From contig JAOZIF010000131.1 of NCBI GenBank assembly GCA_026014495.1, positions 206 to 64,205 of the forward strand: a stretch of 64,000 nt of DNA, written 5' to 3'. The position numbers and the translations under genes are program-made. Positions 3,819 to 45,943 of this stretch are shown piece after piece. The number at the start of each line of letters is the position of its first letter. The stretch's first letter is position 1. The DNA comes from Candidatus Bathyarchaeum sp. GTDB lineage: Archaea; Thermoproteota; Bathyarchaeia; Bathyarchaeales; Bathyarchaeaceae. The notes under the pieces are model-generated. The model made no database searches. It was given only the letters and a program-made list of their open reading frames with translations, and was not told the DNA's origin.

Positions 3819-4280
3819 TTATTCTTGTGTTGTTTTTTTGTGTTTTGTTGTTAGGATTGATTCTGTTAGGAATATGGTCATGGATGCTGCGGTTATGAGT
3901 ATGGAGTACCAGATGCCGAGGCTGATTGTCTGGTGGTTAACAAATATTTGTGTTGCTACTAGGGTTATTTCTGCCAGCAGTATTCCCATAAAAAAGAAGG
4001 AATAAAACACCATACGGGGAACCAAAGTTTTGCCAATCCAAACATGACCTGAAACTCCAGTTTTTTCCCGTACAATGTACTCGCCAAGCTCGTTTTTTTC
4101 GATTAACCCTAAGCCTTCCAGTTTTTGCAGTTGCCTGTAAGCTACGCTTGGGCTGCTCAGATTCGCACCCCGCATAACCTCGCGGGGACCTACGGGTCGG
4201 GATTCTTTGACTACAAATGAGTAAACCTGCAACGTGTTTCCTTCTAGCTCATCAGACAACTGCTTGGTCATTTGTTTCAC
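3819..4280 (-). CDS. Membrane-anchored winged-helix (wHTH) regulator-like protein
   Basis: 153 aa; N-terminal wHTH-like segment (PREVMRGANLSSPSVAYRQLQKLEGLGLIEK) followed by 2-3 predicted TM helices; GTG start overlaps upstream stop (GTGA). Confidence 0.65.
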   Translation of the reverse strand: MKQMTKQLSDELEGNTLQVYSFVVKESRPVGPREVMRGANLSSPSVAYRQLQKLEGLGLIEKNELGEYIVREKTGVSGHVWIGKTLVPRMVFYSFFFMGILLAEITLVATQIFVNHQTISLGIWYSILITAASMTIFLTESILTTKHKKTTQE

Positions 4281-5338: not shown

Positions 5339-5472
5339 TTTCAATTTCTTCACCAACCAACACATGCTAAAAATTTATTATTAGCTCTGGCGGAGGAACA
5401 ATTTCGTTCCATGGCGGAACACCAAAAAAATGAATTAACCCAAACACCAACTTGGCACAAATAACCCACAGC

Positions 5473-18228: not shown

Positions 18229-18930
18229 ATGGACCCCCTGAAACCTGATTTAAGGTCCTGGAAGCTCCTCTTTACTCTATACAAGTTAGCGGAGTTGGGT
18301 GCAACCAGCCGAACCGTTAAGGTTTCCACCGAATATTTGTCAGAAAAGATTGGGGCGTCCCAGCAGACAGCGTCTCGACACCTCATCAACTTGGAAAAGA
18401 TAGGATGGATAAAACGAACCATAACTCCAGATGGCTGCTTACTAAAAATCACCAGCCAAGGAGTTGCCGAGTTAAAAAAACTGTATTCTGAGTTGCGTTT
18501 GATTTTTGAGTCAGAGTATCCACCATCCATAACTTTGGAAGGCGTTTTGTTTAGCGGATTAGGAGAGGGCGCCTACTACGTGACTAAAGAGGGGTATCGC
18601 AAACAGTTTATGGAAAAGCTTGGTTTTGACCCGTATCCTGGCACCCTTAACATCAAGCTGACAACCGACTATGATGTGCACGCCCTGTCGGAGCTTGAAG
18701 CATATCCTGCTGTAGAGCTTGAAGGTTTCAATGACGAGTCCAGAACTTTTGGTCCAGTAAAATGTTATCCTGCAGTAATAAACAACAAGGCAAAGGGCGC
18801 TGTCATTTATGCCATGAGAAGCCATTATGGAGCTTCTGTGCTGGAGATTGTTTCTCCAACGTTTCTTCGAAGCAACCTAAAACTAAAAGACGGAAACAAA
18901 GTGAAAGTTGAGATTCTAATTCTGCCCTAA
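18229..18930 (+). CDS. ribK: wHTH regulator fused to CTP-dependent riboflavin kinase (RbkR-type RibK)
   Basis: N-terminal wHTH (ISEKIGASQQTASRHLINLEKIGWI), C-terminal archaeal RibK motifs PYPGTLNIKL, TFGPVKCYPA, LEIVSP..LR..L.LKDGNKV. Confidence 0.8.
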   Translation: MDPLKPDLRSWKLLFTLYKLAELGATSRTVKVSTEYLSEKIGASQQTASRHLINLEKIGWIKRTITPDGCLLKITSQGVAELKKLYSELRLIFESEYPPSITLEGVLFSGLGEGAYYVTKEGYRKQFMEKLGFDPYPGTLNIKLTTDYDVHALSELEAYPAVELEGFNDESRTFGPVKCYPAVINNKAKGAVIYAMRSHYGASVLEIVSPTFLRSNLKLKDGNKVKVEILILP

Positions 18931-18940
18931 AGCCTGTCAA

Positions 18941-19396
18941 TTACTTGTTGAATGACTCTATAATCTTTCTCACAATCTTTGAGGAACTATCCAATTCTCT
19001 TTTTCCAAATCTTCCAATCTTAGCAACTTCAATTGTAACTTTCTTTTCTTCTATCGCTTTTTGCACTTCATTTTCTATTCCGTCTTGGTCATGGCCCACA
19101 GCTATTATGTCTGGTTTTATTCTTTCAATTACTTTGTCTATGCTGAAATCTTCCCATCCAAGAATGGCTTCGTCGACAACTTTCAGCGACTCGACAAGTG
19201 CGCGTCGTTGGTCCTCTGGCATGATTGGATTTTTTCCTTTTCTGGCTTTTACCGTGTTGTCTCGGGCAACTATAACTATTAGCTCTGCGTTTTTGCCGCC
19301 TGCCTTTTTTGCCTCCTCCAAAAACTTCACGTGACCTAGGTGAAGCAAATCAAATGTGCCCGAAGCTAAGACAGTTTTTTTGTTTTTTGTTACCAT
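18941..19396 (-). CDS. ribL: Archaeal FAD synthetase (nucleotidyltransferase, RibL type)
   Basis: GTFDLLHLGHVKFLEEAKK, LIVIVARDNTV, IMPEDQRRALVESLKVVDEAILG closely follow the RibL pattern. Confidence 0.8.
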   Translation of the reverse strand: MVTKNKKTVLASGTFDLLHLGHVKFLEEAKKAGGKNAELIVIVARDNTVKARKGKNPIMPEDQRRALVESLKVVDEAILGWEDFSIDKVIERIKPDIIAVGHDQDGIENEVQKAIEEKKVTIEVAKIGRFGKRELDSSSKIVRKIIESFNK

Positions 19397-19650
19397 GAAA
19401 ACTCCACAGCTCCTAACAGCCGCAAGGCATCTAATAGCCCTTCACAGTAGGCGACGGAAGTGAGGCTTGTTTCCAGTTTTCCTTTCTGTTGATAATATTT
19501 TGCGTCTTCCAGATAACGTTTAGCCCAATCAAACACCGTTTCAGTCTCTTCATCTTTGAGGCTTACATCTTCTGGGATTTCTTTGATTTCTTTTATGACG
19601 CGGTCTGCACCTTTGATGTATTTTGTAATCAGTTCTTCAATTGTTGTCAT
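19390..19650 (-). CDS. Small helical protein, DUF357-like (commonly next to ribL)
   Basis: 86-aa ORF overlapping ribL start by 7 nt and dph5 stop by 4 nt; family call from memory of DUF357 context. Confidence 0.5.
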   Translation of the reverse strand: MTTIEELITKYIKGADRVIKEIKEIPEDVSLKDEETETVFDWAKRYLEDAKYYQQKGKLETSLTSVAYCEGLLDALRLLGAVEFSW

Positions 19651-20450
19651 TGTGCCATCTCCAACACTTCTTTGGGTGCATCCGCCAATGCTATGAGCGC
19701 TTCAGCTTCCATGAAGTGCAGTTTGCCCGGAAAGATAAGCGTGTGCGGAGGAGCACCAAAATCATAATTTATCGTATCTTGTATGTAACCTGCTTTCACG
19801 ATTGGCTGCGGTGAACCTGCTCTTGCAACGCCTACAACCAGATTTCTTGGTGCGGCAACCTGTTGTTTCTTTTGTTTCTCCAACTCTAGCAGCGTTTGTA
19901 ATGCCTCATTAACCGTCAAATATCTTTTCTCTACAGCTTTTATGTCCAGATAACACATCGTATGCAGTCCCATTTTCATGTTTTCCCTGATAACATTGTA
20001 TGGCGTTTCATAGACAACACCCTCCTCAGAAAATGGCACCGTAACCGCTTTTCCAAACTTGTAATTCTGCAAACCCGAAATCCCTCTAACAGCAGAAACC
20101 GCAGACGCCCCATGAACCACACGGGTTTTAATTCCCCTTTTCTTTGCACTAATCCGCAAATCCACATGAGTTGTGGCTATCATGGGGTCTCCTTGGACTA
20201 TGAACGCTGTCTTTCCTTTCTTAGCGGCTTCAAAGATTAGTTCTCCACCTTCTTCCTCTAAGACTCTTCGCGAAACAACATTAACCTGCTTTCTTATCAT
20301 CTCTTCCAGTTTCTTGATGGATAGTCCAGGCATCAAGCTGGTGTAAACTTCAGCAAAAACTGTGTCTGCACTTTTTAGTTCCTCAAATCCACGGAGTGAA
20401 ACGTCTTTTTCGTCGTACAATCCCATTCCGATGAAGACAAGTTCGTTCAA
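19647..20450 (-). CDS. dph5: Diphthine synthase
   Basis: FIGMGLYDEKD, VFAEVYTS, GDPMIATTH, PPHTLIFPGKLH; start moved to TTG 20450 (MNELVFIGMGL) because the longer ORF runs into the tRNA gene. Confidence 0.85.
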   Translation of the reverse strand: MNELVFIGMGLYDEKDVSLRGFEELKSADTVFAEVYTSLMPGLSIKKLEEMIRKQVNVVSRRVLEEEGGELIFEAAKKGKTAFIVQGDPMIATTHVDLRISAKKRGIKTRVVHGASAVSAVRGISGLQNYKFGKAVTVPFSEEGVVYETPYNVIRENMKMGLHTMCYLDIKAVEKRYLTVNEALQTLLELEKQKKQQVAAPRNLVVGVARAGSPQPIVKAGYIQDTINYDFGAPPHTLIFPGKLHFMEAEALIALADAPKEVLEMAQ

Positions 20451-20540
20451 AGCCTTGTAGCTCCCATTACATTTACCTTCTGTAATAACAAAAAATATAT
20501 GGGTACCTGTTTTCTCTGTAGTGAGTATGCCTTTATTTGT

Positions 20541-20643
20541 GGGCCCGTAGCTCAGCAAGGCAGAGCGGCGGACTGGTCCCTCTGGGACTAGGCTGAAACT
20601 CTTAATCCGTAGGTCAGGGGTTCAATTCCCCTCGGGCCCGCCA
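20541..20643 (+). tRNA. Intron-containing tRNA, probably tRNA-Lys(CUU); Thr(GGU)/Asn(GUU) not excluded; encoded CCA
   Basis: Acceptor GGGCCCG/CGGGCCC, D arm GCTC-AGCAAGGCA-GAGC, anticodon stem GCGGA/TCCGT enclosing 33 nt (7-nt loop + 26-nt insert), T arm AGGGG-TTCAATT-CCCCT, discriminator G, CCA. Confidence 0.8.
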
Positions 20644-21078: not shown

Positions 21079-21531
21079 ATGACTAAACAGGAAATGTGGA
21101 AACTTATTCGCAGACAGCGGCTATGTCGTATTGCCTTCAAAGGAGTAGATTACCCATACATGGCGCCCTTCCAGTATGTAGTGTTGAATGATACCTTGTA
21201 TTTTCATTTTACTGATTACGGAACAAAAATGAAGTTAATCGAGAACGACAAACGTGTCGCTGTCGAAATCGAAGAATACCGAGAAGACCTAAGCGAATAC
21301 AGTTTCATCGTCCTGAGAGGAACCCTAAAAGTTGTGACAAATTCGCAGGAACGAGCAAAAGCGATACAGAATCTTGCGGAAGAGGGTGAACAGAAGCTTT
21401 CGCCAAACTTTCTTCCTGCGCATGGTTTCAAAAAAGAGGACAGTTGGCACTCGCTAACTCCAACAAACAAGTCATTAGTTGCCGTGAAACTAGAAAACAT
21501 AACACAAGAAATCGGGCTAAAGTCTCCATGA
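21079..21531 (+). CDS. Pyridoxamine-5'-phosphate-oxidase-like FMN-binding split-barrel protein
   Basis: MTKQEMWKLIRRQRLCRIAF...YMAPFQYV...LYFHF pattern typical of PNPOx/NimA-like family; ATG 21079 preferred over upstream TTG 20968. Confidence 0.7.
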   Translation: MTKQEMWKLIRRQRLCRIAFKGVDYPYMAPFQYVVLNDTLYFHFTDYGTKMKLIENDKRVAVEIEEYREDLSEYSFIVLRGTLKVVTNSQERAKAIQNLAEEGEQKLSPNFLPAHGFKKEDSWHSLTPTNKSLVAVKLENITQEIGLKSP

Positions 21532-21587: not shown

Positions 21588-22412
21588 TTAGAATGGTGCG
21601 AATATTCCGACGAATACTAGCCATGATAGTATCGTTTTTGCTACGAAGCTGAGTATGATGTAGAATCTTTCTCCGTAAAGGTAGTCTTTCCAGCGTCCAA
21701 CGCCCTTGTATTGCAGTACCATGTTGATTGCGAAGATGTTAAAGAGGAAGAAGTAAATGAACAAAATCATGTAAACAAATGTTGGTACTTCTACACCAAC
21801 AGAGTTGACAGCGGCGATGAAGTATGCGTAGAGCACAACCCATGGTGTGAATCCAGAAATGCTTCCAAGAATGAATGCTGACCAGCTTGTTTTCTCTGTT
21901 TTCTGGTTAATTACTTCCATTATGTACCCAAACATTATCATCATTGCGTTGAGAACAAAAATCATCACCAGCGACCAAAAGTCCCAGACGCCTAAAAACA
22001 GTGCAATCAAGACAATCATTATCGAACTTGAGAATGCATATTCGTACCATCTGTATGGGTTCATGCCTTTTTTCAGGTTTTCATTGTAGCTATTGTTTTT
22101 TGGATACGCAATCATAAAATGTGCTATCGCAGAAATCAGAGGAAACGCAGCAAGAATTACTCCCAAATATCCAATAGTGAAGAAAACTTGAGCGTCTGGA
22201 ACTGCAGTAATCACTGTTGTGTCTGCGCTGACGATGTTCAATTTCATGTAAAATGTGTATATGTCTCTTGACCACTCAAGCTGAAGCCCCAAAACCAGCA
22301 TTATAGCCCCTTGTACTAGATGCAAAATTCCTGCAGCAATGTTGAATCGCTTCAAGTATTTGAAAGAAATAGGTGACTTTGCAATCAGTCTTTTTCTTTC
22401 TTCAGAATTCAT
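21588..22412 (-). CDS. Heliorhodopsin
   Basis: 274 aa, 7 TM; motifs align with heliorhodopsin 48C12 as recalled: GILHLVQ, AIAHFMI, NPYRWYEYAFSSSIMIVLIA (counterion Glu), QYKGVGRWKDYLYGERFYIILSFVAKTILSW (Schiff-base Lys). Confidence 0.85.
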   Translation of the reverse strand: MNSEERKRLIAKSPISFKYLKRFNIAAGILHLVQGAIMLVLGLQLEWSRDIYTFYMKLNIVSADTTVITAVPDAQVFFTIGYLGVILAAFPLISAIAHFMIAYPKNNSYNENLKKGMNPYRWYEYAFSSSIMIVLIALFLGVWDFWSLVMIFVLNAMMIMFGYIMEVINQKTEKTSWSAFILGSISGFTPWVVLYAYFIAAVNSVGVEVPTFVYMILFIYFFLFNIFAINMVLQYKGVGRWKDYLYGERFYIILSFVAKTILSWLVFVGIFAPF

Positions 22413-22589
22413 GATAACTACTCTACCTGCTAAAATTTAACTTTTACCTGTGCCCTTATAGCCGTCACGCGTTTACAGTTTGTACCCTTCGTGGTTACGC
22501 ACAAATCTGAATTGTAGATTAACAAAACATTACTTTTAGTAACGGCACACTCCACAGAGAGTTTACTTTATCAAACGGGTGTGTTGTTC

Positions 22590-23387
22590 ATGTCTTCGCC
22601 TTTGATTGAAGCATTTGAGCTTACAAAGCAGTTCGGCTCAGTTCAAGCCCTAACGGGACTGAACTTTAAGGTATTTCCCGGAGAAATCTATGGTCTGCTG
22701 GGTCCAAACGGTGCAGGCAAAACCACAACCATCAAAGCTATCATCGGCTTGGTGGATCCAACTTCAGGATGGGTTAAAGTTCAGGGCTGTGACCCAACAA
22801 AGAACTCCGTCAAAGTTAAATCAAAAATAGGGTACGTAGCCGAAAAACCGATACTATATGAATCTCTTTCTGCCCGTGACTTTTTGGAGTTCGTTGCGTC
22901 TATACGAAAAATCGATCAAGCTTCAGTCAACCGTGTAGTAACCCAGTTAGGGGACGCTTTCGACATGGCAGAATATTTTGACGCCCCCATAGCTACATTG
23001 TCGACTGGAATGAAACAAAAAGTTGCACTAATTTCCTCTTTTGTTCATCAGCCTCCAGTTCTTCTTTTGGATGAGCCCCTGAGTGGTCTTGATGCCAAAA
23101 CTAGTCGCATAGTCAAAGACCTGCTTTTGTTGCATACACAAAAAGGTGGAGCAGTCTTGTTTTCTACACACATAATGGAAGTGGCTGAAAGCATCTGCAC
23201 AAGAATTGGAATCATCTATGAAGGCAAAATAGTTGCTGAGGGAACGCTTGACCAGCTGAAAACTAAAACTGGAAATAAAAGCGAAACATTGGAAGAAGTC
23301 TTCTTGAAGTTGACAAACGAAGAACACGAGGTTGCCGACAAGACCCGACTCTTGGGGGAGGCATTCTTCAAGGATGAAGTTGCTTGA
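22590..23387 (+). CDS. ABC transporter ATP-binding protein (ABC-2/exporter-like)
   Basis: Walker A GPNGAGKTT, signature LSTGMKQKV, Walker B LLLDEP. Confidence 0.9.
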   Translation: MSSPLIEAFELTKQFGSVQALTGLNFKVFPGEIYGLLGPNGAGKTTTIKAIIGLVDPTSGWVKVQGCDPTKNSVKVKSKIGYVAEKPILYESLSARDFLEFVASIRKIDQASVNRVVTQLGDAFDMAEYFDAPIATLSTGMKQKVALISSFVHQPPVLLLDEPLSGLDAKTSRIVKDLLLLHTQKGGAVLFSTHIMEVAESICTRIGIIYEGKIVAEGTLDQLKTKTGNKSETLEEVFLKLTNEEHEVADKTRLLGEAFFKDEVA

Positions 23388-25008
23388 GGCATGGCGGTAC
23401 AGTCGTCTGCCCTACAAGGAGGTCGTGTACAAGTCAATAGCCGAGGAAAAAGGTCGTATGTGGTGGGGCGGCTTTGGTAGAGGACAACTTGGAGCAGACG
23501 CACAAAACGATTATGAACTTACCAAGAAAGCATTAAGAATAGCAAAATGGGACAAATCGCTGGTAGCAATATTTAATGTTCTAGCTGCAATTATCCCCTT
23601 TACGGCACAGTTTTTTGGGTCTCCAATCCTTGGATTAACAAGCGCCATCTCATTGAGTTTGGCTGTCACCTTTGGTTTCATGGCGTTGTATGCAATTCAG
23701 ACGCTTTCATCGTTTGTCAGCGCCGAATCCTCATCTCTTCTATCTACTTTGCCCCTTGAACAACGTGACTTCTCACTGATTACCCTGTTCTCTTTTATCC
23801 GATCTGTGGATTACATTGTTGTGGGAGCGATACTAACTCAAGTAGCTTTGGTGGCTTACATTACTGCTTCTCCCTTGGTTGTTCTGGTTATGCTTGTGGC
23901 TTCTGTGATGAATGCGGTGCTTGCTGTAGCGGTTGCTCTTTGGTTCTCAAGGTTATTCACTAAAAACCTGTCTCGTGGAGGACGCTCTAAAGGAACCACT
24001 GTTTTGCGTTTGGTTTTCATTTTAATGTGGGGTTCACTGCTAATGGGTGTGAGCCTTCTGATTAGTTTGCCTTGGTACATCGTGTCCTCTTTAGAAACTA
24101 CGCTTCTTAGCCCAAACCAGTTCTCTAACATACTTTTTTGTTTGTTGCATCCGTTCTCTGCTGGATTAACAATCGCTAACTTGAGCAGTTTTGTTACTGC
24201 TGGTTCTACAGCATTAATTGCGGCTGTGTCTATGGTTGGCTACGTCATTGTTACTTTGTTCGCAGTAAAGTGGACCCTGAAGACAGTTAAGCGCATATCC
24301 ACTGGAGGTGACGTTAAGTTGTCGAGAGTAACAGCAAAAGATTTCTCGATAAAGACGCGTAGTCCTTTGTTTGGGTTTGTTCTAAAAGACCTAAAGATTG
24401 CGTCTAGGAATCCTGCAACTGCTTTCTTTTTTGCTCTTCCTGTTTTAGAGACTGTTATTGTATCGTTTACGATTGCAAACTTTGAGGTTTTGCGGGCTTC
24501 TACTGTGCTTGTTTCAACGTTTATGGGTGCAATCTTTGTTTTGCTTATGCCTCTCGCCTTGCTTGGTGCAGAGGGAACTGGGCTTGAGTACACCAAAACT
24601 TTGCCCTTAGACATTAACCGAATAATAACTTCCAAGACGCTGATATCAACGCTAACTTATCTTCCAGTGCCAATAGTTTTGCTTGTCATGGCATTACTAA
24701 AGCCATTGTCCTCGCCCCTGCTCGTTCTTATTCCATTTTTTGTTATGCTCGCGATAGCCTCAGCAAGCATCTTTGAGATTCAACTTTTCTTAAGTTCTGT
24801 AACCAAAGGAAAAATTTCGGCACTAATTCATGATTTAAAAAAGCTGGTCATTGGAGTAACAACACTACTTATTCCATTGGTTGGCTATTCTACAGTTTAC
24901 CTCGCTTCTTTCAGTCACTTTTTTGCAGTTTTGAGTATGGCTTGGGTGTCAGTTTTAGAGTTGGTTTTGGCGTTTTATTTGCTTAGGCGCAACAAGAAAA
25001 TTGTCTAG
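23374..25008 (+). CDS. Large polytopic ABC-associated permease, hypothetical
   Basis: About 545 aa with >=10 hydrophobic segments; ATG 23374 overlaps ATPase stop by 14 nt. Confidence 0.65.
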   Translation: MKLLEAWRYSRLPYKEVVYKSIAEEKGRMWWGGFGRGQLGADAQNDYELTKKALRIAKWDKSLVAIFNVLAAIIPFTAQFFGSPILGLTSAISLSLAVTFGFMALYAIQTLSSFVSAESSSLLSTLPLEQRDFSLITLFSFIRSVDYIVVGAILTQVALVAYITASPLVVLVMLVASVMNAVLAVAVALWFSRLFTKNLSRGGRSKGTTVLRLVFILMWGSLLMGVSLLISLPWYIVSSLETTLLSPNQFSNILFCLLHPFSAGLTIANLSSFVTAGSTALIAAVSMVGYVIVTLFAVKWTLKTVKRISTGGDVKLSRVTAKDFSIKTRSPLFGFVLKDLKIASRNPATAFFFALPVLETVIVSFTIANFEVLRASTVLVSTFMGAIFVLLMPLALLGAEGTGLEYTKTLPLDINRIITSKTLISTLTYLPVPIVLLVMALLKPLSSPLLVLIPFFVMLAIASASIFEIQLFLSSVTKGKISALIHDLKKLVIGVTTLLIPLVGYSTVYLASFSHFFAVLSMAWVSVLELVLAFYLLRRNKKIV

Positions 25009-25059: not shown

Positions 25060-26127
25060 GTGCCAGAAGCAGTGTGCCTGAAGGTTCCCAAAAAGCTGGG
25101 TGAACTAGCAATTCGTCTAGTTGCCGAGCTTGACCTGTTTAATCGTAACCTGCAGATTCATCAAACAGAAGGCTCGCTTTACATACCATTAACCGTTGAC
25201 CTTTCTTATGATGCTTTTAGTGTATTTGAGAAGAGTTTGTCCAAATACGAATTGTCTGTTCATAACTTTGTTGAGCGGGAGAAACGTCATTTAGTTCCAG
25301 CTGATTTTTTGGCAGACACCTTGCCCCCTGACCTTTTAGTTCTGATTCCAAGAGCCATCGATTTTGTGGGTGACATTGCCATAGTCGAGATTCCCGCAGA
25401 GCTTATAGACTATAAAAATGCTATTGGCGAGGCCATACTAAAGGCACACAAACATGTATCCACTGTTCTAGCCAAGTCTGGTGCCGTTGAGGGCATCTAC
25501 CGCATAAGAGACTTTGAAGTCATAGCTGGAGACAACAAAACCGCTACTTTATACCGAGAGTATGGTTGCACCTACTATGTTGATGTTGCCAAAGCCTATT
25601 TTTCTCCAAGACTTTCTACTGAACACAACAGAGTTGCCTTAGCGGTTAAAGCTGGCGAAACTGTGGTTGACCTGTTCGCTGGTGTCGGTCCCTTTGTTGT
25701 TCCAATAGCAAAAAAGCACCCAAATGTGAAGATTTATGCTGTAGACGTTAACCCCGATGCTGTAGCGTTTCTGAAAAGAAATGTTGCATTGAACCGTGCT
25801 GAAAAACAGGTTGTGCCTATCGTCGGTGATGCTAGGCAAATTGTCCAAGAGCAACTGTTGGGTAAGGCTGACCGTGTAATCATGAATCTGCCTGAAACGT
25901 CGTTAGAGTTCGTGGATGTTGCCTGCAAAGCCCTCAAGCCGGAGGGTGGAATTATTCATTATTACTGTTTCGTGAATGATTCTGGTCCACTAAAAACAGC
26001 GAAAACTCAGTTAACACAAGCTGTAACCCAAAATAAGCGGCAAGTCAAAGAGTTTTTGTTGGCAAAATCGGTGCGAGAGGTTGCACCTTACACTTGGCAG
26101 GTGGTTTTGGACGCCAAAATTCAGTAA
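25060..26127 (+). CDS. trm5: tRNA (guanine37-N1)-methyltransferase, Trm5/Taw22 (Met-10+) family
   Basis: Class I SAM fold VVDLFAGVGPF, DVNP, VIMNLPETS; length and N-terminal D1/D2 region fit archaeal Trm5. Confidence 0.8.
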   Translation: MPEAVCLKVPKKLGELAIRLVAELDLFNRNLQIHQTEGSLYIPLTVDLSYDAFSVFEKSLSKYELSVHNFVEREKRHLVPADFLADTLPPDLLVLIPRAIDFVGDIAIVEIPAELIDYKNAIGEAILKAHKHVSTVLAKSGAVEGIYRIRDFEVIAGDNKTATLYREYGCTYYVDVAKAYFSPRLSTEHNRVALAVKAGETVVDLFAGVGPFVVPIAKKHPNVKIYAVDVNPDAVAFLKRNVALNRAEKQVVPIVGDARQIVQEQLLGKADRVIMNLPETSLEFVDVACKALKPEGGIIHYYCFVNDSGPLKTAKTQLTQAVTQNKRQVKEFLLAKSVREVAPYTWQVVLDAKIQ

Positions 26128-30848: not shown

Positions 30849-31721
30849 ATGGTAGACGTTAATAGTCAAGTTCATCCACAACGGATTGTTTCTCTCTCTC
30901 CCAGCAACACGGAGATATTGTTTGCTGTGGGTGCTGGCGCCAAAGTTGTGGGCGTAACAGACTACTGTAACTATCCTCCTGAGCTAGAATCACGGATTAA
31001 AGAAAACGAAATACTGAAGGTGGGCGGTTACTGGGACCCCTCAGTTGAAACCATTGTGGACTTGAAGCCTGACTTAGTTGTGGTTTCTACTGCACAGTGT
31101 ACAGTAAAATCAAACAATTGCAAAACGAGTTGTAGCCGTAAATGTGAACTAACAATAAACGCTGCAAACCAGCTAAAAAGTTTGGGACTACACGTTTTGA
31201 CTTTGGCTCCACACAGCATGGACGATGTTCTTAATAACATATTGATTGTGGGAACGGCAACTGGAAACAGTTCCCAAGCCAGAACTCTTGTGGATGACCT
31301 CAGACAACGAATAGATAATGTAGTTTCGAGGACAAACGCCGTTTCTAATAGACCACGGGTGTACTTTGAGGTCTGGAACAATCCTTACATTAGTGTTAAT
31401 TCTGCAACATGGATTGGTAACCTAATCGACTTGGTTGGAGGAACAAATGTTTTCGGAGAATCAGTTTCAGAATGGCCAATAATTTGCCCCGAAGACATTA
31501 TCCAACAGGACCCTGACGTAATGGTTTTTCCAGTTATTCCTGATGTTCCAAGATTTTGGGGAAGTTTTGAGGCTGTGAAGAAACGGCAAGGGTGGTCGCA
31601 AATAAGCGCTGTTAAAACTGGTAGACTATACGAGGTTCAAAGAGACTGCATCTCCCGACCCGGACCTAGGCTGGTGGAGACCCTAGAACAACTGGAGACA
31701 CTGATTCACACAAGTTCTTAA
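30849..31721 (+). CDS. BtuF/FhuD-type (cluster A) binding protein paralog lacking signal peptide, with 4-Cys insertion
   Basis: RIVSLSPSNTEILFAVGAGAKVVGVTDYCNYP core shared with 32487..33515; no N-terminal hydrophobic segment; insert CTVKSNNCKTSCSRKC. Confidence 0.75.
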   Translation: MVDVNSQVHPQRIVSLSPSNTEILFAVGAGAKVVGVTDYCNYPPELESRIKENEILKVGGYWDPSVETIVDLKPDLVVVSTAQCTVKSNNCKTSCSRKCELTINAANQLKSLGLHVLTLAPHSMDDVLNNILIVGTATGNSSQARTLVDDLRQRIDNVVSRTNAVSNRPRVYFEVWNNPYISVNSATWIGNLIDLVGGTNVFGESVSEWPIICPEDIIQQDPDVMVFPVIPDVPRFWGSFEAVKKRQGWSQISAVKTGRLYEVQRDCISRPGPRLVETLEQLETLIHTSS

Positions 31722-31767
31722 ATACGTCTTAATTGTTGATTTGCAACGTCTATGAGGTTGTTTAAGC

Positions 31768-32400
31768 ATGAATGCTGCTGCTCTATTTTCTGGTGGCAAA
31801 GACTCCCTTTATGCCCTATATCTTGCCGAAAGGCAAGGCGTTACTGTTGACCATCTAATTACTTTGCTTCCAACTCTTCCTTGGCCTTCTCCACATGCAG
31901 AAAACATAGAAGCTCTGAAACTTTTGGCAAAATCCATGGGTAAACAGTTAACAATTGTTGATTTTCAAAAAGAAGGAGCATTTACTGAGACCCTCAAAAG
32001 CCTTGAAGTCGATGCATTAATTGCAGGTGACATTAATGTTGAGGCACATTTGGCGGGTCTAACAGATGTTTGTACTAAAACTGGTTTGGAGTTGCTTGAG
32101 CCAATTTATGGCAAGAATACCTCTGAGCTTTTTGATGAAATCTTTGGTTTAGGCTTTAAGGCGTTGATTACTGGTGTGGACTTACGTTATATGAGTGAAG
32201 AGTGGCTGGGTTTTGTTATCAGCGAAGAATCTGGTGACGATTTTTTGTCGAAGATTGGAAGTGTTGACCCTTTGGGTGAACATGGGGAGTTCCATACTTT
32301 GGTTCTTGAGTGCCCGTTGTATTCAAAACCGTTCAGTGTGGCATCTGTTGTGAAGAAAACTGTGAATAACATGGCTTATGTTAATGTGACTGTTGTGTAG
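31768..32400 (+). CDS. PP-loop ATP pyrophosphatase, Dph6/MJ0570-like (diphthine-ammonia ligase family)
   Basis: N-terminal ALFSGGKDS PP-loop, about 210 aa, EFHT motif near C-terminus. Confidence 0.7.
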   Translation: MNAAALFSGGKDSLYALYLAERQGVTVDHLITLLPTLPWPSPHAENIEALKLLAKSMGKQLTIVDFQKEGAFTETLKSLEVDALIAGDINVEAHLAGLTDVCTKTGLELLEPIYGKNTSELFDEIFGLGFKALITGVDLRYMSEEWLGFVISEESGDDFLSKIGSVDPLGEHGEFHTLVLECPLYSKPFSVASVVKKTVNNMAYVNVTVV

Positions 32401-32451
32401 CCCTTTTTTGTTGGGTTTGTTTGTTTTTGTCGGAACTTTTATATACCTGTT

Positions 32452-32470
32452 AGGATGGATTATCCATCCT
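32452..32470. promoter_or_regulatory. Perfect 19-bp palindrome AGGATGGAT-T-ATCCATCCT between TATA-like box and start codon
   Basis: 9-bp perfect arms; TTTTATATA at 32437-32445; ATG at 32487; predicted TSS falls at palindrome edge. Confidence 0.45.
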
Positions 32471-32486
32471 AAAGGGTGTAACTTAA

Positions 32487-33515
32487 ATGGATAAAAACGT
32501 CACATATATCGTAGCAATTTTAGCCGTAGTCTCATTAGTTGTCGCAGCTTACGGACTCGTCACTTTTCAAGGCCAAATCGATGACTTGAACAGTTCCGTA
32601 GACGACATCCAACAAACACTAACTACAATCCAAGACCAAATCGATAACTATCAACCCAGCAGCGAAGATCAAGAAATAACACTAGTTGACTCCATGGGCA
32701 ACGTAGTAACTTTAACTTCAATTCCAGAAAGAATAGTATCTTTGGCGCCAAGCAACACAGAAATCCTGTTTGCAATTGGAGCAGGAGAAAATGTTGTGGG
32801 TGTAACAGACTTTTGTGATTACCCCTACAACTTCACGGCATGGATCGAGTCAGGCAACTTGACCAGCATAGGAAACTATTATGGGCCCTCTGTAGAGCCA
32901 ATCGTTGCTTTGAATCCTGATTTGGTTCTTGCAAGCAGTGGAAGCCTAGAAGCCGCTGCGACTCTAGCAGACCTAGGCTATAACGTCTTGGTGGTAGAAG
33001 GCCACACCGTTGACGACATTTTGCAGGACATACTTTTGGTGGGACGAGCAACCGGTAACAACGCTGAAGCTAGTGCTCTTGTTACACAAATGAGAGCAAG
33101 ACTAGATGCTGTAGCCGCTCAACTAGCAGACGCAACTACTACTCCAAAAGTTTACTATGAAGTTTGGTACGAGCCTCTACAAAGTGTGGGACCAGAAACA
33201 TTCATTGACGAAATCATAACTTTGGCGGGTGGAGAAAACATCTTCAACGACGCAACTACAAGCTGGCCAACTGCGAGCTCCGAAGAAATTATTGAAAAAA
33301 ATCCTGACGTACTAGTATTTCCTGACACGTATATGTCTCAAAACTACTACGACATAGATGCTGTGGATGACCGTCCTGGATGGACCACAATAACTGCAGT
33401 TCAAAACGGTGCAATTTACGAGATTGACGAAAACCTGCTGGTTAGGTCTGGTCCTCGGGTTGTCGATGGGGTAGAAACGATGGCAGCGCTGATTCATCCA
33501 GAAATTTTTGGATAA
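32487..33515 (+). CDS. Membrane-anchored BtuF/FhuD-type substrate-binding protein
   Basis: N-terminal TM anchor, coiled linker, RIVSLAPSNTEILFAIGAGENVVGVTDFCDYP core. Confidence 0.8.
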   Translation: MDKNVTYIVAILAVVSLVVAAYGLVTFQGQIDDLNSSVDDIQQTLTTIQDQIDNYQPSSEDQEITLVDSMGNVVTLTSIPERIVSLAPSNTEILFAIGAGENVVGVTDFCDYPYNFTAWIESGNLTSIGNYYGPSVEPIVALNPDLVLASSGSLEAAATLADLGYNVLVVEGHTVDDILQDILLVGRATGNNAEASALVTQMRARLDAVAAQLADATTTPKVYYEVWYEPLQSVGPETFIDEIITLAGGENIFNDATTSWPTASSEEIIEKNPDVLVFPDTYMSQNYYDIDAVDDRPGWTTITAVQNGAIYEIDENLLVRSGPRVVDGVETMAALIHPEIFG

Positions 33516-33557
33516 TCCTAAAATAACCCCCCCTTTTTTATACCCGAAAGACAAATT

Positions 33558-34646
33558 GTGAGAGTTATGAAACAAGACGCTGAAACCTCTCATTTAAAGC
33601 ATGTTTCTCACTGGAAGCTATATCTGGTTATTCTGTTAATTTTGTTTGGAATAGTTTTTGTTTTGTCACTTAACTTAGGTTATGCTCACATTCCATTCAG
33701 CGACATTTTGAAGATATTGTCCAAACAAGTTCCTTTTCTAAATGATTTGGTGGATTCTTCTGGCATCAGCAATACCTCTGAAGTTATAATAACTCAACTT
33801 AGGCTTCCGCGTGTAATCTGTGGAGCACTAGTTGGTGCATCTCTTGCAACTGCAGGTGTAATTTATCAGGGAATCTTCAGAAATCCAATGGCTGATCCTT
33901 ATGTGATAGGGTCCATGTCTGGTGCATCGTTAGGTGCAGCACTTGTGTTGGTTCTAGGAGTTGGTGTATCCTTTCTTGGGGTTAATACGCTCCAGATTTT
34001 TGCTTTTGTTTGCTCTTTTGCTACTGTTCTTGCTGTTTATTCTATATCAAAAACTGGCTCTAGGGTTCCAGTTACGATGTTGCTTCTAACTGGAATAGCA
34101 ATTACCTACTTCCAAAGTGCAATAGTTACTTTTTTGCAAACTGTTGCTACCGACAAAGTTCATCGTGGACTGGCTTTTTGGCTCATTGGAAGCCTTTCAT
34201 CTACTGAAACTTGGAGTGATGTTTGGTCGGTTTTTCCATTTCTGGTTCTTGGTTTTGTTGCTGCTTATCTTTACTCGCGTGACCTGAACGTTCTTGCGTT
34301 AGGAGAAGATCAGGCTCAGCACTTGGGTGTTGAAATAGAAAAACTAAAACGGATTTTGCTTATTTGCGCAACTCTCATGACTGCTGCAGCAGTTTCCATC
34401 AGCGGTTTAATCGGTTTTGTTGGCTTGATTATTCCTCATTTGACTAGGCTTATTGTTGGTCCAGATCACCGTATTCTTCTTCCAACATCTGCTGTTGTGG
34501 GAGCATCTTTTCTTATGATAAGTGATTCCATAGCAAGGGTTATAATGGGTTCAGGTGAAGCTCCTGTTGGTGTTATAACTGCGCTTGCTGGTGGACCGTT
34601 TTTCATTTATCTTCTGCGCAGGAAAAAACGAGGATACACAATGTGA
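33558..34646 (+). CDS. FecCD/BtuC-family ABC permease
   Basis: About 10 TM; LRLPRV, GxxLAxAG, IGFVGLIIPH motifs of FecCD family; ATG 33567 alternative start. Confidence 0.9.
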   Translation: MRVMKQDAETSHLKHVSHWKLYLVILLILFGIVFVLSLNLGYAHIPFSDILKILSKQVPFLNDLVDSSGISNTSEVIITQLRLPRVICGALVGASLATAGVIYQGIFRNPMADPYVIGSMSGASLGAALVLVLGVGVSFLGVNTLQIFAFVCSFATVLAVYSISKTGSRVPVTMLLLTGIAITYFQSAIVTFLQTVATDKVHRGLAFWLIGSLSSTETWSDVWSVFPFLVLGFVAAYLYSRDLNVLALGEDQAQHLGVEIEKLKRILLICATLMTAAAVSISGLIGFVGLIIPHLTRLIVGPDHRILLPTSAVVGASFLMISDSIARVIMGSGEAPVGVITALAGGPFFIYLLRRKKRGYTM

Positions 34647-34658
34647 GATGACAACTGA

Positions 34659-35939
34659 ATGGTGACCTTATCGATTGATGGAATAGAGTGTTCGTATGGT
34701 TCTGTAGATGTCTTGAAGGATATTAATTTCAATGTGAAGAGTGGCGAGTTTTTAGGAATTCTTGGTCCAAATGGTTCAGGAAAAACAACTTTACTCAAAA
34801 GCATCAGTAGGGTACTCAAACCCAAGAAAGGTGCAATTCTCATAGGTACCGAAAACATATACAACATGAAAACTGTGGATGTTGCCAAACAAATGGCTGT
34901 AGTTCCCCAGAGTACCCCTGTCTCTTTTGATTTCACTGCTCTGGAAGTTGTTCTCATGGGTCGCAATCCTCACATGGCTCGATTCAAGATGGAGGGCAAA
35001 AAGGACTTGGAGATAGCAAAAAAGTCCATGGAACTAACCCGCACTTGGGAGTTCGCCGACAGACCTGTAACCGAGCTTAGTGGCGGAGAAATACAGCGTG
35101 TTATAATTGCTCGTGCCCTGACTCAGGAACCTCAAATTCTTTTACTTGACGAGCCAACAACGCACCTTGACATAAGCAATCAATTGGAAATAATGGACCT
35201 CATTAAGCACTTATGTGAAACACAAAAGTTGCTGATTGTAGCGGTTTTTCACGATTTCAACTTGGCTGCCCGATATTGTGACTCAATTATTCTGTTGAAG
35301 GACGGCAAAATTGTTGCTGCTGGAAAATCGAATGACACTCTCACAAGCGAAAACGTCAAAAAAGTTTTCAGTGTTAATACCATCGTGAAGAATCACCCTA
35401 TTACTGGACAGCTTCATGTTATTCCCATTTCACGACCCATAATTCTGCAACCAAAAAGCCTCATTGTTCACTTGATATGTGGAGGTGGCACTGGCAGTCC
35501 AATTATGAAGACGCTTCTTGATGAGGGATACCGCGTAACTGCGGGGGTTCTCAACCTGTTAGATACTGACCAAGAGACTGCTCAGCTACTGTCGATTCCA
35601 ACAACAAATGAGGCACCGTTCTCTCCGATAACCACTGAAGCCCACAAAGCGAACCTGCAGATGATTAGCAAAGCGAACGTTCTTGTTGTAACGCCGACCC
35701 AGTTTGGTGATGGTAACCTGCGTAACCTAGATGCTGCAGAAACGGCTCTGAAACAGGGAATACCGACAGTTCTACTAGAGAATGGACCAATGGGGGAGAG
35801 AGACTTTACCAACGGCAAAGCTACAGAATATCTAAAGCGCCTCAAAACCAAAGGCGCTACGACCGTGAAGAGTACTAGTGAACTGGTACAGTTTCTTGAT
35901 AATTTGGAACTAAAAAATAACAAAGAAAATAATCATTAA
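34659..35939 (+). CDS. FecE/BtuD-type ABC ATPase fused to a ~170-aa C-terminal domain of unknown function
   Basis: Walker A GPNGSGKTT, LSGGEIQRV, LLLDEPTTHLD, H-loop FHD in the first ~255 aa; extra Rossmann-like tail LICGGGTGSPIMK...LVVTPTQFGDGN. Confidence 0.85.
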   Translation: MVTLSIDGIECSYGSVDVLKDINFNVKSGEFLGILGPNGSGKTTLLKSISRVLKPKKGAILIGTENIYNMKTVDVAKQMAVVPQSTPVSFDFTALEVVLMGRNPHMARFKMEGKKDLEIAKKSMELTRTWEFADRPVTELSGGEIQRVIIARALTQEPQILLLDEPTTHLDISNQLEIMDLIKHLCETQKLLIVAVFHDFNLAARYCDSIILLKDGKIVAAGKSNDTLTSENVKKVFSVNTIVKNHPITGQLHVIPISRPIILQPKSLIVHLICGGGTGSPIMKTLLDEGYRVTAGVLNLLDTDQETAQLLSIPTTNEAPFSPITTEAHKANLQMISKANVLVVTPTQFGDGNLRNLDAAETALKQGIPTVLLENGPMGERDFTNGKATEYLKRLKTKGATTVKSTSELVQFLDNLELKNNKENNH

Positions 35940-35960
35940 ATGAAGCCTTGATTTAATTAA

Positions 35961-37043
35961 ATGGTGACTATTTTGAGAGGTAAAGGACCCTTATTCATTC
36001 TGCCTTGGAGATGTACTCCAGCATGCACCAGCAACTGTCTACACTGCGGTTTCGCATCAACTTCTCCTGCTCCTGACGCTCTTGGAACTGAAGAGACAAA
36101 ACGCATTGTAGACAAAATACACGATTTTGGGGCAACCTATTTTGGAATAAGCGGAGGAGAACCCCTTCTGAGAGAAGACCTCCCCGAAATAATAGCCTAT
36201 GCCAAGAGCACTGGCATGAATGTTAGCTTAATAACAAACGGCTATTTTCTTAACGACAAAAACTTAGACACCCTAGTCAGGTATGGGGTCCGTGTCTCAT
36301 TAAGTGTTGATGGGCCAGAAGAAATTAATGATGCATTACGCGGCAAGGGTGCATACGAAAAAGCTGTTTTAGCCATGGAAAAAACATCCAAAGCTGGACT
36401 TTTGGATTGCCTTGTGGCAACCCTCGCCAATGTTGACTCTACACGAAATAACGTAAGCTCCGACGATATGGAGCATGTCATCAAACTAGCTGAAAAATAC
36501 GGAGCCCGATGGGTGGTAATTCACGGTTTTATTCCCTTCAACAAAACAAAAGAGCATCTTGCTCGTGCCCCCTCCCCACAGCAGTATGAGAAAATTTGGA
36601 ACGAGGTTTATGAACTAAGGCTAAAGTATAACGGAACACCTGAAGTCAACGTCTATTGTCCCTTCTTTGCTCGAATTGCTAAACAGCGAGGATTGCCCAA
36701 CTTTGACGACTGGTTCAACAACTTTTTCCTTGGCAAATGCTCTCTGGCTGGGAAGTACATGAGTGTAATCGAAAACGGGGATGTTATTCCATGCAGCTTC
36801 AATGATAGAATCAGGCTAGGAAATGTCCAAGACAAATCGCTAAAGCAAATCTGGGATGAGCTGCAAACATCTGAATTAACCGTTAAACTTAGTGACCGTA
36901 GTAACTTGAAGGGTAAATGTGGTGTTTGTGAGTATCGCGAGATTTGTGGTGGCTGCAGAACCCGAGCGGAAATCTATACTGGAGACTTTCTTGGTTCTGA
37001 CCCTGCATGTGGGTATATTCCTAAAGTGTTGCGCGAAAAATAG
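35961..37043 (+). CDS. Radical SAM/SPASM-domain enzyme, AhbC/AhbD/NirJ-like (paralog 1)
   Basis: CTSNCLHC (Cx3Cx2C), GGEPLL, C-terminal KGKCGVCEYREICGGCRTRAE auxiliary-cluster motif; 21 nt after the ABC ATPase stop. Confidence 0.85.
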   Translation: MVTILRGKGPLFILPWRCTPACTSNCLHCGFASTSPAPDALGTEETKRIVDKIHDFGATYFGISGGEPLLREDLPEIIAYAKSTGMNVSLITNGYFLNDKNLDTLVRYGVRVSLSVDGPEEINDALRGKGAYEKAVLAMEKTSKAGLLDCLVATLANVDSTRNNVSSDDMEHVIKLAEKYGARWVVIHGFIPFNKTKEHLARAPSPQQYEKIWNEVYELRLKYNGTPEVNVYCPFFARIAKQRGLPNFDDWFNNFFLGKCSLAGKYMSVIENGDVIPCSFNDRIRLGNVQDKSLKQIWDELQTSELTVKLSDRSNLKGKCGVCEYREICGGCRTRAEIYTGDFLGSDPACGYIPKVLREK

Positions 37044-45836: not shown

Positions 45837-45943
45837 GCAACACCTTCAATGGACACATTTCGACTTGAACAAACTATTTCATAAGGCTCTTTTAAGCTTG
45901 CCCAACAAAAAACCCCAAAAAACTATCAGTATATACTGTTTCG

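Follow-up and report, generated by a model that had tools for sequence, protein, structure and literature searches.

What does a heliorhodopsin (HeR) do in an archaeon of anaerobic type, and which of the genes around it, if any, encodes its partner? The question is raised by a 64,000-nucleotide stretch of the genome of a Candidatus Bathyarchaeum sp. (here called the window), in which a heliorhodopsin gene had been predicted from the sequence alone, next to genes for a flavoprotein related to pyridoxamine phosphate oxidases (PNPOx-like) and for an ABC transporter. We examined the identity and conservation of this protein, the constancy of its gene neighborhood among relatives, and the functions that it could plausibly serve.

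Identity, conservation, and clade of the heliorhodopsin

The protein matched the Pfam Heliorhodopsin model (PF18761) with an E value of 8.9e-90 and 300.7 bits (threshold, 26.7), its residues 20 to 270 covering profile positions 1 to 241 of 242, and the NCBIfam equivalog NF038020 ("HeR") with 339 bits (cutoff, 100) over positions 1 to 244 of 244. In a PDB sequence search, residues 14 to 273 aligned with TaHeR (6is6; E = 4.9e-55), and 48C12 was also retrieved (6su3; E = 5.7e-44). Sequence comparison thus confirmed that the open reading frame encodes a genuine, intact, full-length heliorhodopsin, as the original prediction had claimed. The four motif blocks on which this claim relied were all found, namely, GILHLVQ (residues 28 to 34), AIAHFMI (residues 95 to 101), RWYEYAFSSSIMIVLIA, which begins at residue 121, and QYKGVGRWKDYLYGERFYIILSFVAK, which ends at K259, and they fell on the key residues of TaHeR and 48C12.

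H31, H98, E124, and K259 aligned with H23, H82, E108, and K238 of TaHeR (native numbering, from which that of the PDB chain differs by 6) and with H23, H80, E107, and K241 of 48C12. The retinal Schiff base lysine of TM7, K259, lies in SFVAKT, compared with SLVAKS in both solved structures, and the counterion glutamate of TM3, E124, lies in RWYEY, compared with RWFEY and RWVEY, so that the homology of both residues to those of 48C12 and TaHeR, which was critical to the prediction, held. The pair of histidines was present as well (H31 and H98), the first in TM1 as proposed but the second in TM2 rather than in "TM2/3," and S255 was a further key residue. Among 201 sequences of the clade, H98, E124, and S255 were kept in all, K259 was a lysine in 200 with a gap in the remaining one, and H31, retained here, was found in 191, the other 10 having glutamine. 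As judged from these alignments, every residue for holding a protonated retinal Schiff base was shown to be present, with lysine K259, counterion E124, S255, and the H31/H98 pair. Lysine and arginine residues are distributed unevenly around the seven hydrophobic segments, 16 on the N terminus and loops 2, 4, and 6 versus 2 on loops 1, 3, and 5, a charge bias showing that the predicted topology is inverted (N-in).

The best match among proteins of solved structure, TaHeR from the Thermoplasmatales archaeon SG8-52-1 (PDB 6IS6, 7CLJ, and 7U55), has the same H/H/E/S/K constellation and is likewise archaeal and without a retinal pathway (for the window, among 55 open reading frames). The two proteins differ in the phylum of the host, Thermoproteota (Bathyarchaeia) versus Thermoplasmatota, and in the longer TM1-TM2 and TM5-TM6 loops of the window protein, which has 13 extra residues over the matched span. 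Kornilov et al. (2025) have defined a lateral fenestration, a putative carotenoid site, by an aromatic pair (162 and 206 in 48C12 numbering), two small residues (166 and 210), and a glycine (169). Mapped by hand via the TaHeR alignment, the predicted fenestration residues of the window protein (F180, S184, G187, F224, N225, and A228) agree with this definition as a match of motif only, F180 and F224 being aromatic, S184 and A228 small, G187 the glycine, and N225 at the position of N207; the TaHeR equivalents are Y164/F, G171, F203, N204, and A207.

Compared with six relatives, the gene had a dN/dS of 0.05 to 0.11, with synonymous sites near saturation, showing that it is under strong purifying selection. 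Intact genes of 269 to 283 codons occurred in hundreds of Bathyarchaeia contigs, and intact homologues were also found in 80 species-level genomes. Nevertheless, the gene is dispensable: it was absent or reduced to a TM6-TM7 stub in the close relatives L084, L085, and L097. One further copy (L025) carried an in-frame stop.

The protein is identical to NCBI entry MCW4016123.1, "heliorhodopsin HeR [Candidatus Bathyarchaeum sp.]." Of the 80 top-ranking relatives in genomes, at 65 to 87% identity, almost all came from Bathyarchaeia and the others from Methanobacteriaceae. Bathyarchaeota heliorhodopsins were published in 2020, when mangrove sediment was found to contain transcripts of the Bathy-6 and Bathy-8 HeRs (Pan et al. 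2020, PMC7110647), and the clade of anaerobe HeRs from Bathyarchaeia and Methanobacteria was described as cluster C10 by Bulzu et al. (2021). Cluster C10, whose hosts are anaerobic sediment organisms lacking the retinal pathway, and the Bathy-6 and Bathy-8 proteins represent the clade of the window HeR, from which it does not differ substantively. The novelty implied by the original prediction was therefore not borne out; the find is correct but ordinary and carries little weight as a discovery, since GenBank already lists the protein by name and its clade has been published. Thermoplasmata, and not Bathyarchaeia, are the source of archaeal clone HULAa36F11 (Chazan et al.), and our literature search found no characterized Bathyarchaeia HeR.

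The host is of the anaerobic type that had been proposed. The closest complete genome, that of Ca. Bathyarchaeum tardum M17C-01, encodes a HeR of 87% identity at the same locus (L001), and this organism is a strict anaerobe, inhibited by O2, whose growth needs sterile sediment (PMC10477458); the description of strain M17C makes no mention of rhodopsin. A related HeR is also encoded by the cultured Methanobacterium ferruginis NBRC 105197 (L079).

Organization of the locus

Table 1. Features of the heliorhodopsin locus, in window coordinates
Feature	Position	Strand	Remarks
Diphthine synthase dph5	19647-20558	-	NCBIfam TIGR00522, 302 bits; homologue alignments start ~30 codons in
Conserved membrane protein, 84 aa	20682-20936	-	Synteny
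PNPOx-like (Pyridox_ox_2, NimA-like) split-barrel flavoprotein	21079..21531 (ORF extends upstream to 20968)	+	PF12900, E = 1.5e-20
Heliorhodopsin (HeR) gene	21588..22412	-	274 aa, ATG start, 7 TM, N terminus predicted cytoplasmic
Divergent intergenic region, HeR/ABC ATPase	22413..22589	.	Sequence read
ABC transporter ATP-binding subunit, DrrA/ABC-2-exporter-like	22590..23387 (ORF opens at GTG 22581)	+	PF00005, E = 3.9e-30
Polytopic permease, 558 aa, 12TM_1	23332..25008	+	PF09847, E = 1.3e-11; translationally overlaps ATPase
Trm5/TYW2 tRNA methyltransferase	25060..26127	+	PF02475, E = 3.3e-48

The HeR gene lies in a variable slot between conserved genes (Table 1). On the left, dph5 and the gene for the 84-residue membrane protein form the conserved backbone flanking the PNPOx-like gene, with synteny in L081, L086, L094, and L103; the right-hand border is trm5, which directly abuts HeR in relatives without the ABC pair, at a gap of 183 to 444 bp in L002, L003, and L004. 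The neighbors originally described, a convergent PNPOx-like gene and a divergent ATPase and permease, were found as stated, except that the permease, though large, is not giant. HeR and the ATPase gene share a divergent upstream region of 168 to 177 nucleotides, depending on whether GTG or ATG is taken as the ATPase start; alignments of ATPase homologues begin at the ATG. A+T-rich, TATA-like boxes, noted by eye some 20 to 30 nucleotides upstream of both start codons, suggest two separate, back-to-back archaeal promoters. The best NCBIfam match of the ATPase was TIGR01188 (drrA), with 211 bits, below the cutoff, and the permease presumably serves as the membrane subunit of this transporter.

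The PNPOx-like gene and HeR are separated by 56 nucleotides and, being convergent in the window, are not cotranscribed. The conserved core of the flavoprotein comprises 150 residues, its homologues being mostly called at 158; it scored 74 bits versus 27 with PF12900, and an alignment of 18 sequences revealed invariant motifs. Its AF2 model (pLDDT, 73.7) had flavin-binding split barrels as top Foldseek matches (2hti, 2hq9, 2fg9, and 6eci; probability, 1.00), and the structural neighbors bind FMN, FAD, F420, or heme, while the PDB sequence search yielded weak matches only. Equivalence to NimABCDEF was ruled out, as the score of 30.7 bits lies far below the NCBIfam cutoff of 260.

Neighbors of heliorhodopsin genes among relatives

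The neighbors of the window gene were compared by tblastn with 80 HeR-centered genome loci and 80 PNPOx-centered metagenome loci (160 in total). Unbiased clustering of the neighbors in the 80 genome loci placed SOUL heme-binding and PNPOx-like proteins on top. Counted as loci, which are not phylogenetically independent events, SOUL was near HeR in 26 of 80 and was the commonest neighbor in sister lineages, while a PNPOx-like protein was near HeR in 15 to 19 of 80, in at least three arrangements, and was the most conserved neighbor in the lineage of the window. The window itself has no SOUL gene. One or the other was located within 500 bp of HeR in 23 of 65 eligible loci, and 10 of 18 PNPOx matches lay at most 300 bp from HeR, although flanks of 8 kb were searched. 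The pairs formed by the PNPOx-like gene and HeR were convergent, codirectional, or divergent, in unrelated flanking contexts, and the PNPOx-like gene also adjoined HeRs only 41 to 46% identical to that of the window. Peroxiredoxin, MsrA, catalase, and nitroreductase recurred near related HeRs as well, matching the oxidative-stress theme of HeR neighborhoods reported by Chazan et al. (2021) and Bulzu et al. (2021).

The PNPOx-like gene is, however, not an obligate partner of HeR. It belongs to the conserved backbone in the window lineage and persisted without HeR in L081 and L103, and in the reverse test, when the surroundings of more distantly related PNPOx homologues were examined, just 2 of the 15 eligible loci contained a HeR. 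Obligate partnership was rejected on the grounds that the gene persists where HeR has been lost and that the majority of its distant homologues lack a nearby HeR. Conservation of the neighborhood, which the original prediction had proposed to examine, thus spoke in part for the PNPOx-like gene and against the ABC pair (see below). The SOUL and PNPOx families were, moreover, already on the list of frequent HeR neighbors, along with AhpC/TSA, photolyase, ABC/MFS, and tRNA-modifying enzymes (Chazan et al. 2021). Three of these classes occur together in the window (PNPOx-like, ABC, and the tRNA methyltransferase Trm5); that survey was made at the level of Pfam families across phyla, whereas the present analysis resolves lineages.

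Retinal supply and function

As the original prediction had noted for blh and crt genes, no carotenoid or retinal biosynthesis family of Pfam matched any of the 55 open reading frames of at least 90 codons in the window. Heliorhodopsin-only genomes are usually in this position and generally have no blh (Chazan et al. 2021; Bulzu et al. 2021). Retinal would not be made by the cell: since the window holds no pathway and a strict anaerobe can hardly be expected to cleave carotenoids with O2, it would be scavenged from the sediment, possibly along with a xanthophyll via the conserved lateral fenestration. TaHeR is reported to capture exogenous retinal efficiently (cited in Bulzu et al. 2021).

On balance, the gene probably encodes a functional HeR of the anaerobe-associated archaeal clade of Bathyarchaeia and Methanobacteria, that is, a nonpumping light sensor that uses exogenous retinal and serves in protection against photo-oxidative stress. 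By analogy with TaHeR and 48C12, the protein would bind all-trans-retinal, undergo a slow photocycle without pumping ions, and act as a light-dependent switch whose cytoplasmic face modulates a partner protein; for pigment, photocycle, and absence of transport, this extrapolates from proteins that match at an E value of 5e-55 or weaker. The gene neighborhoods point to protection against light-associated oxidative or photosensitizer stress as the most likely output, for which the adjacent NimA-like flavoprotein or, in sister lineages, the SOUL heme-binding protein would be the best candidate for a downstream or coregulated component. Light may signal the oxic sediment surface to an O2-sensitive cell rich in flavins and cobamides. 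This ecological rationale is a conjecture, anoxic sediment being rarely reached by light, a doubt also raised by Pan et al. (2020; PMC7110647).

A bolder version of this reading, speculative and rather unlikely, is that HeR and the NimA-like flavoprotein and/or the SOUL tetrapyrrole-binding protein constitute a dedicated light-alarm module in archaea that are strict anaerobes and depend on cobamides and flavins (Bathyarchaeia and Methanobacteriaceae). Photoactivated HeR would directly bind and switch these soluble proteins, which would either quench or sequester photosensitizing flavins and tetrapyrroles or reduce photo-oxidation products.

Regulation of the divergent ABC exporter (ATPase plus 12TM_1 permease) by HeR in a light-dependent manner is a still weaker candidate and has little probability. 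It has an experimental precedent in OcHeR-OmrDE (Cho et al. 2024), since the HeR of Ornithinimicrobium cerasi binds and upregulates OmrDE, a heterodimeric multidrug resistance ABC transporter whose genes lie in the operon of the HeR (PMC11109279), and ABC transporters are among the frequent HeR neighbors (Chazan et al. 2021). In the window, too, heliorhodopsin and ABC genes adjoin each other, with a common upstream region of 168 to 177 nucleotides, an arrangement also found in Ca. B. tardum (L001) and in metagenome contigs L088, L092, L096, and L098. However, the genes of the window are on opposite strands and divergent, not in a single operon, their host is an archaeon and not an actinobacterium, the ABC system, unlike OmrDE, has its DrrA-like NBD on a protein separate from the 12-TM permease, and it is not conserved along with HeR. 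All four combinations of presence and absence of HeR and the ABC pair were observed in the same syntenic slot among close relatives with the same flanking genes: HeR occurred without the pair in L002 to L004, L083, L087, L090, L100, L105, and L124, the pair without HeR in L081, and neither in L103. ATPase and permease were found together in L001, L081, L088, L092, L096, and L098, and among the 80 genome loci, the orthologous pair adjoined HeR in one only (L001). Because its presence was independent of that of HeR across the 160 loci, the ABC exporter was rejected as a conserved partner, and we infer that it was inserted separately as an accessory system. The presence of the ABC pair and Trm5 beside HeR reflects accessory insertion and synteny background, whereas PNPOx-like and SOUL genes are found there again in rearranged loci.

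It is very unlikely that the protein, instead of acting as a sensor, transports ions (protons) driven by light or contributes energy by harvesting light with a carotenoid antenna. Its closest characterized relatives by sequence are TaHeR and 48C12, and transport was reportedly detected for neither, in the work of Pushkarev in 2018 and of Shihoya in 2019. Some viral heliorhodopsins do transport protons (V2HeR3, as cited in PMC12873467), and the fenestration motif proposed for a xanthophyll antenna is intact in the window HeR, but transporting HeRs belong to the virus-dominated subfamily 2, which lacks this motif (Kornilov et al. 2025). HeR pumping is unconfirmed according to the Thermoprofundales paper, and harvesting of light energy is implausible in dark, anoxic sediment.

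Least probable is that the gene is an evolutionary leftover or a recently transferred passenger, functionless in an anaerobe that has neither chromophore nor light: retinal genes are missing from the window, relatives of the host are strict anaerobes, presence of the gene is polymorphic, with truncated remnants (L081, L084, L085, L097, and L103) and the in-frame stop in L025, and the clade is common to Bathyarchaeia and Methanobacteriaceae at 65 to 70% identity, which suggests horizontal transfer, but the low dN/dS (0.05 to 0.11 at near-saturated synonymous sites) and the retention of the Schiff base lysine, counterion glutamate, S255, and TM2 histidine in 200 to 201 of 201 sequences led us to reject a pseudogene or relic, and intact homologues in hundreds of contigs and 80 species-level genomes, transcripts reported in situ (PMC7110647), and recurrent, rearranged linkage to the SOUL and PNPOx-like families, unexpected for a passenger, further argue against it.

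As to the function of HeR in anaerobes, the adjacent ABC exporter is now ruled out as a conserved partner. The neighbors that survive genome rearrangement, the NimA-like flavoprotein and, in sister lineages, SOUL, are better partner candidates. The same locus in cultured Ca. B. tardum M17C and the related HeR of Methanobacterium ferruginis NBRC 105197 offer an experimental handle on light responses. If a light-alarm module did exist, it would give heliorhodopsin its first testable physiological role in an obligate anaerobe, because Ca. B. tardum has the same locus and is in culture.

Identity of the heliorhodopsin and its host

The ORF that the original prediction had read as a heliorhodopsin (HeR) covered the full length of the Pfam profile PF18761 (Heliorhodopsin; E = 8.9e-90; 300.7 bits; gathering score, 26.7) and reached 339 bits against the NCBIfam equivalog NF038020, "heliorhodopsin HeR" (cutoff, 100). 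A search of PDB sequences returned archaeal TaHeR (6is6) as the top match (E = 4.9e-55) and also actinobacterial 48C12 (6su3; E = 5.7e-44). The four predicted motif blocks were all found and aligned exactly on functional residues of these two proteins, namely, the TM1 histidine H31 (H23 in both), the TM2 histidine H98 (TaHeR H82, 48C12 H80), the counterion E124 (E108, E107), S255 near the Schiff base (S234, S237), and the Schiff-base lysine K259 (K238, K241); the 6is6 chain numbering is the native one offset by 6, as checked on H23, E108, and K238. An inverted, N-in topology is a defining trait of heliorhodopsins. The window protein has seven hydrophobic segments, with 16 Lys and Arg residues on the N terminus and loops 2, 4, and 6 versus 2 on loops 1, 3, and 5, a bias that reads as the positive-inside signature of this predicted topology. 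Since the profile, PDB, residue, and topology matches go far beyond chance, the identification and its residue-level reasoning hold, and we regard the ORF as a heliorhodopsin with near certainty.

Features of the window
Feature	Position	Strand	Remark
Heliorhodopsin ORF	21588..22412	-	274 aa, ATG start
PNPOx-like flavoprotein, conserved core	21079-21531		150 aa
CTP-dependent riboflavin kinase (N-terminal HTH) and RibL-type FAD synthetase	18229-19396		
Cobamide uptake/salvage neighborhood	30849-37043 and 45093-51548		
ORF without Pfam match	38492-40777	-	761 aa; none even at E<=0.01
ORF without Pfam match	41417-43645	-	742 aa; none at E<=1e-4
ORF without Pfam match	4277-5365	-	362 aa; none even at E<=0.01
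ORF without Pfam match	5932-7314	-	460 aa; none even at E<=0.01

The call of a heliorhodopsin in this anaerobe is thus correct but previously known: the protein is annotated (the identical MCW4016123.1, "heliorhodopsin HeR [Candidatus Bathyarchaeum sp.]," comes from a contig of 65.4 kb), and earlier publications cover the clade, its presence in anaerobes, and the neighbor families. Pan et al. (2020; PMC7110647) reported HeRs with transcripts, without a retinal pathway, in Bathy-6 and Bathy-8 MAGs, and cluster C10 of Bulzu et al. (2021) unites Bathyarchaeia and Methanobacteria HeRs inside an anaerobe-dominated group. More than 5000 proteins matched the window HeR at E<1e-20, and the best 80 species-level genome matches (loci L001 to L080; 65 to 87% identity) were nearly all from Bathyarchaeia, together with a group of Methanobacteriaceae. 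The nearest complete genome is that of cultured Ca. Bathyarchaeum tardum M17C-01 (L001, CP122380.1, 399969-416793; HeR 87% identical), which has the same PNPOx-HeR-ABC-Trm5 locus. This archaeon of the Bathy-8/B26-1 order is strictly anaerobic, O2 inhibited, and demethoxylating, and the word "rhodopsin" was not found in its species description (PMC10477458). The MtrH, B12-binding, CobS, CbiZ, BtuFCD-like, and radical-SAM genes of the window fit such a lifestyle; likewise, the cobamide neighborhood, with two BtuF-like binding proteins, a FecCD permease, an ABC ATPase, SPASM radical-SAM enzymes, CobS, CbiZ, and a B12-binding protein adjoining an MtrH-family methyltransferase, is in keeping with Bathyarchaeum's O-demethylase lifestyle.

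HeRs of cultured and uncultured Methanobacterium (L079, L050, L065, L067, and L077) were 65 to 70% identical to that of Bathyarchaeum, which suggests interphylum transfer among strict anaerobes. SAG AM-311-L02 (L006 and L011) and MAG 8_1_Jan_SF_Bin48 (L017 and L026) each had two distinct paralogues (74 to 78% identity to the query), so some Bathyarchaeia carry more than one HeR. Near-identical HeRs were also filed under Promethearchaeati, Hadarchaeota, Nitrososphaeria, Patescibacteria, and Methanosuratincola MAGs (L028, L031, L037, L054, and L069), through either contamination of the bins or additional horizontal transfer.

Gene neighborhoods

We compared the window's neighbors with the 80 genome loci and, in a reverse scan, with metagenome contigs centered on the PNPOx-like gene (L081 to L160). 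The ABC ATPase and permease had been proposed as a possible HeR partner, and the HeR-regulated exporter OcHeR-OmrDE (PMC11109279) is a precedent for such coupling. However, an orthologous ABC ATPase-12TM_1 permease pair adjoined HeR in only one of the 80 genome loci (L001), and in L002 to L004 the gene for the tRNA methyltransferase Trm5 directly abuts HeR. The reverse scan gave a backbone order of dph5, an 84-aa protein, the PNPOx-like gene, a variable slot, Trm5, and DUF371, with the slot in all four states: HeR with ABC (window, L001, L088, L092, L096, and L098), HeR only (L002 to L004, L083, L087, L090, L100, L105, and L124), ABC only (L081), and neither (L103). Together with contigs retaining only a HeR stub, these states indicate that HeR and the ABC pair are independent accessory insertions, and the pair was rejected as a conserved partner. 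Because the genes are divergent, with no shared operon, and combine a DrrA-like NBD with a separate permease, the precedent does not transfer; regulation of the exporter by HeR is improbable.

When all ORFs lying up to 3 kb from HeR were clustered in an unbiased way, the SOUL heme-binding protein (PF04832) came first, as the single most frequent immediate neighbor of the clade (26/80 loci, Methanobacteriaceae included), followed by the PNPOx-like Pyridox_ox_2 protein (15 to 19/80), with lower counts for DUF6512, nitroreductase, DUF523/DUF1722, Bcp peroxiredoxin, MsrA, catalase, fasciclin, and alpha/beta-hydrolase genes; these locus counts are not independent evolutionary events. One of the two leading families lay within 500 bp of HeR in 23 of the 65 loci with adequate flanks. 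SOUL, which has no gene in the window, lay within about 300 bp in L007, L010, L018, L019, L022, L029, L034, L039, L050, L056, L064, L067, L068, L071 to L073, and L078, often co-directionally with a gap of 46 to 90 bp, Methanobacteriaceae included, an arrangement that looks like an operon.

With 8-kb flanks searched, 10 of 18 PNPOx matches lay within 300 bp of HeR. The two genes are convergent in the window, L001, and L003 to L005, co-directional in L020 and L030, and divergent in L006, L036, L042, L045, L048, and L059; the latter two groups share none of the window's other neighbors, and in L042, L045, L048, and L059 the PNPOx-like and SOUL genes appear to share an operon. PNPOx-like genes also adjoin HeRs only 41 to 46% identical to ours (L125, L149, L152 to L154, and L160). 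Such recurrence, in three orientations and unrelated contexts, is what a functional link would be expected to produce and favors the flavoprotein as a candidate partner, but the Bathyarchaeum lineage keeps it even without HeR, and of the 15 eligible loci centered on more distant homologues, just 2 had HeR. A specific link stays tentative. Chazan et al. listed PNPOx, SOUL, ABC transporters, and tRNA-modifying enzymes as frequent HeR neighbors and favored an "oxidative stress" interpretation, and Bulzu et al. concluded similarly.

Alignment of 18 HeR-linked orthologues of the flavoprotein showed invariant LCRIAF, PFQY, YFHFT-YG, NFL-AHGF, and C-terminal GLKSP motifs. Its AlphaFold2 model (pLDDT 73.7) best resembled flavin-binding split beta-barrels (BH0577, 2hti; Mll6688, 2hq9; NimA-like, 2fg9; MSMEG_5243, 6eci), with F420- and heme-binding barrels ranking lower, pointing to a putative flavin-binding fold. 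Assignment to the nitroimidazole reductase equivalog was rejected (30.7 bits; cutoff, 260). The riboflavin kinase/FAD synthetase pair lies 1.7 to 2.9 kb from the flavoprotein and HeR and is syntenic in L001, L003, L081, and L094; this proximity is probably a matter of backbone synteny, not of function.

Chromophore supply, selection, and function

As predicted, no retinal biosynthesis gene was detected: Pfam scans of all 55 window ORFs of at least 90 aa returned no phytoene synthase/desaturase, lycopene cyclase, Blh, or RPE65-type oxygenase. Retinal formation by carotenoid cleavage (Blh and CCD enzymes) requires O2. Because the host lineage is O2 sensitive, the simplest inference is that it takes up exogenous retinal. 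The lack of such genes in the window is typical for HeR-only genomes, from which blh is mostly missing (Chazan et al.; Bulzu et al.). F180, S184, G187, F224, N225, and A228, mapped by hand via the PDB alignment onto the definitions of Kornilov et al. (2025), make up all residues of the lateral fenestration proposed there as an entry for retinal or a xanthophyll antenna.

The window HeR is intact, under selection, and equipped with all chromophore-binding residues and the N-in topology. By homology to TaHeR and 48C12, it would bind retinal and undergo a slow photocycle without pumping, signaling through protein-protein contact on its cytoplasmic face, and we consider a nonpumping sensor using exogenous retinal likely; a role as ion transporter or light harvester is very unlikely. 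The retinal may be scavenged from sediment, the output may be tied to protection from light-associated oxidative or photosensitizer stress, and the NimA-like flavoprotein, or SOUL elsewhere, would be the leading candidate for an effector or a co-regulated partner. The composite of heliorhodopsin, exogenous-retinal sensor, and flavoprotein link is the explanation we somewhat favor.

HeR is an accessory gene in the Bathyarchaeum lineage, polymorphic in presence among close relatives: it is cleanly missing from L081 (6450-7364) and L103 (1445-1554), cut down to a TM6-TM7 stub in L084 (6512-6796), L085, and L097, where the new N terminus is similar to the beginning of the diphthine synthase ORF, and matched with an interruption in L094 (6511-7268; query residues 210 to 230 missing). 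The in-frame stop codon in L025 (8001-8822) may mark a pseudogene or a sequencing error. A functionless passenger is nevertheless the least probable reading for the window gene, since H98, E124, and S255 are invariant in 201/201 clade sequences, K259 is kept in 200 (the remaining one has a gap), and dN/dS against six relatives was 0.05 to 0.11 (Nei-Gojobori; synonymous sites near saturation), which rules out that the gene of this genome is a decaying relic; 10 of the 201 sequences have Q in place of H31.

Useful additions to what was known are the support, resolved by lineage, for the PNPOx-like and SOUL associations, the negative result for the ABC pair, and the pointer to cultured hosts. Two cultured anaerobes carry members of the clade, Ca. 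B. tardum M17C and Methanobacterium ferruginis NBRC 105197 (L079, NZ_AP027738.1, 1252689-1269507), the latter a pure-culture test system, and both are usable for tests of HeR function.
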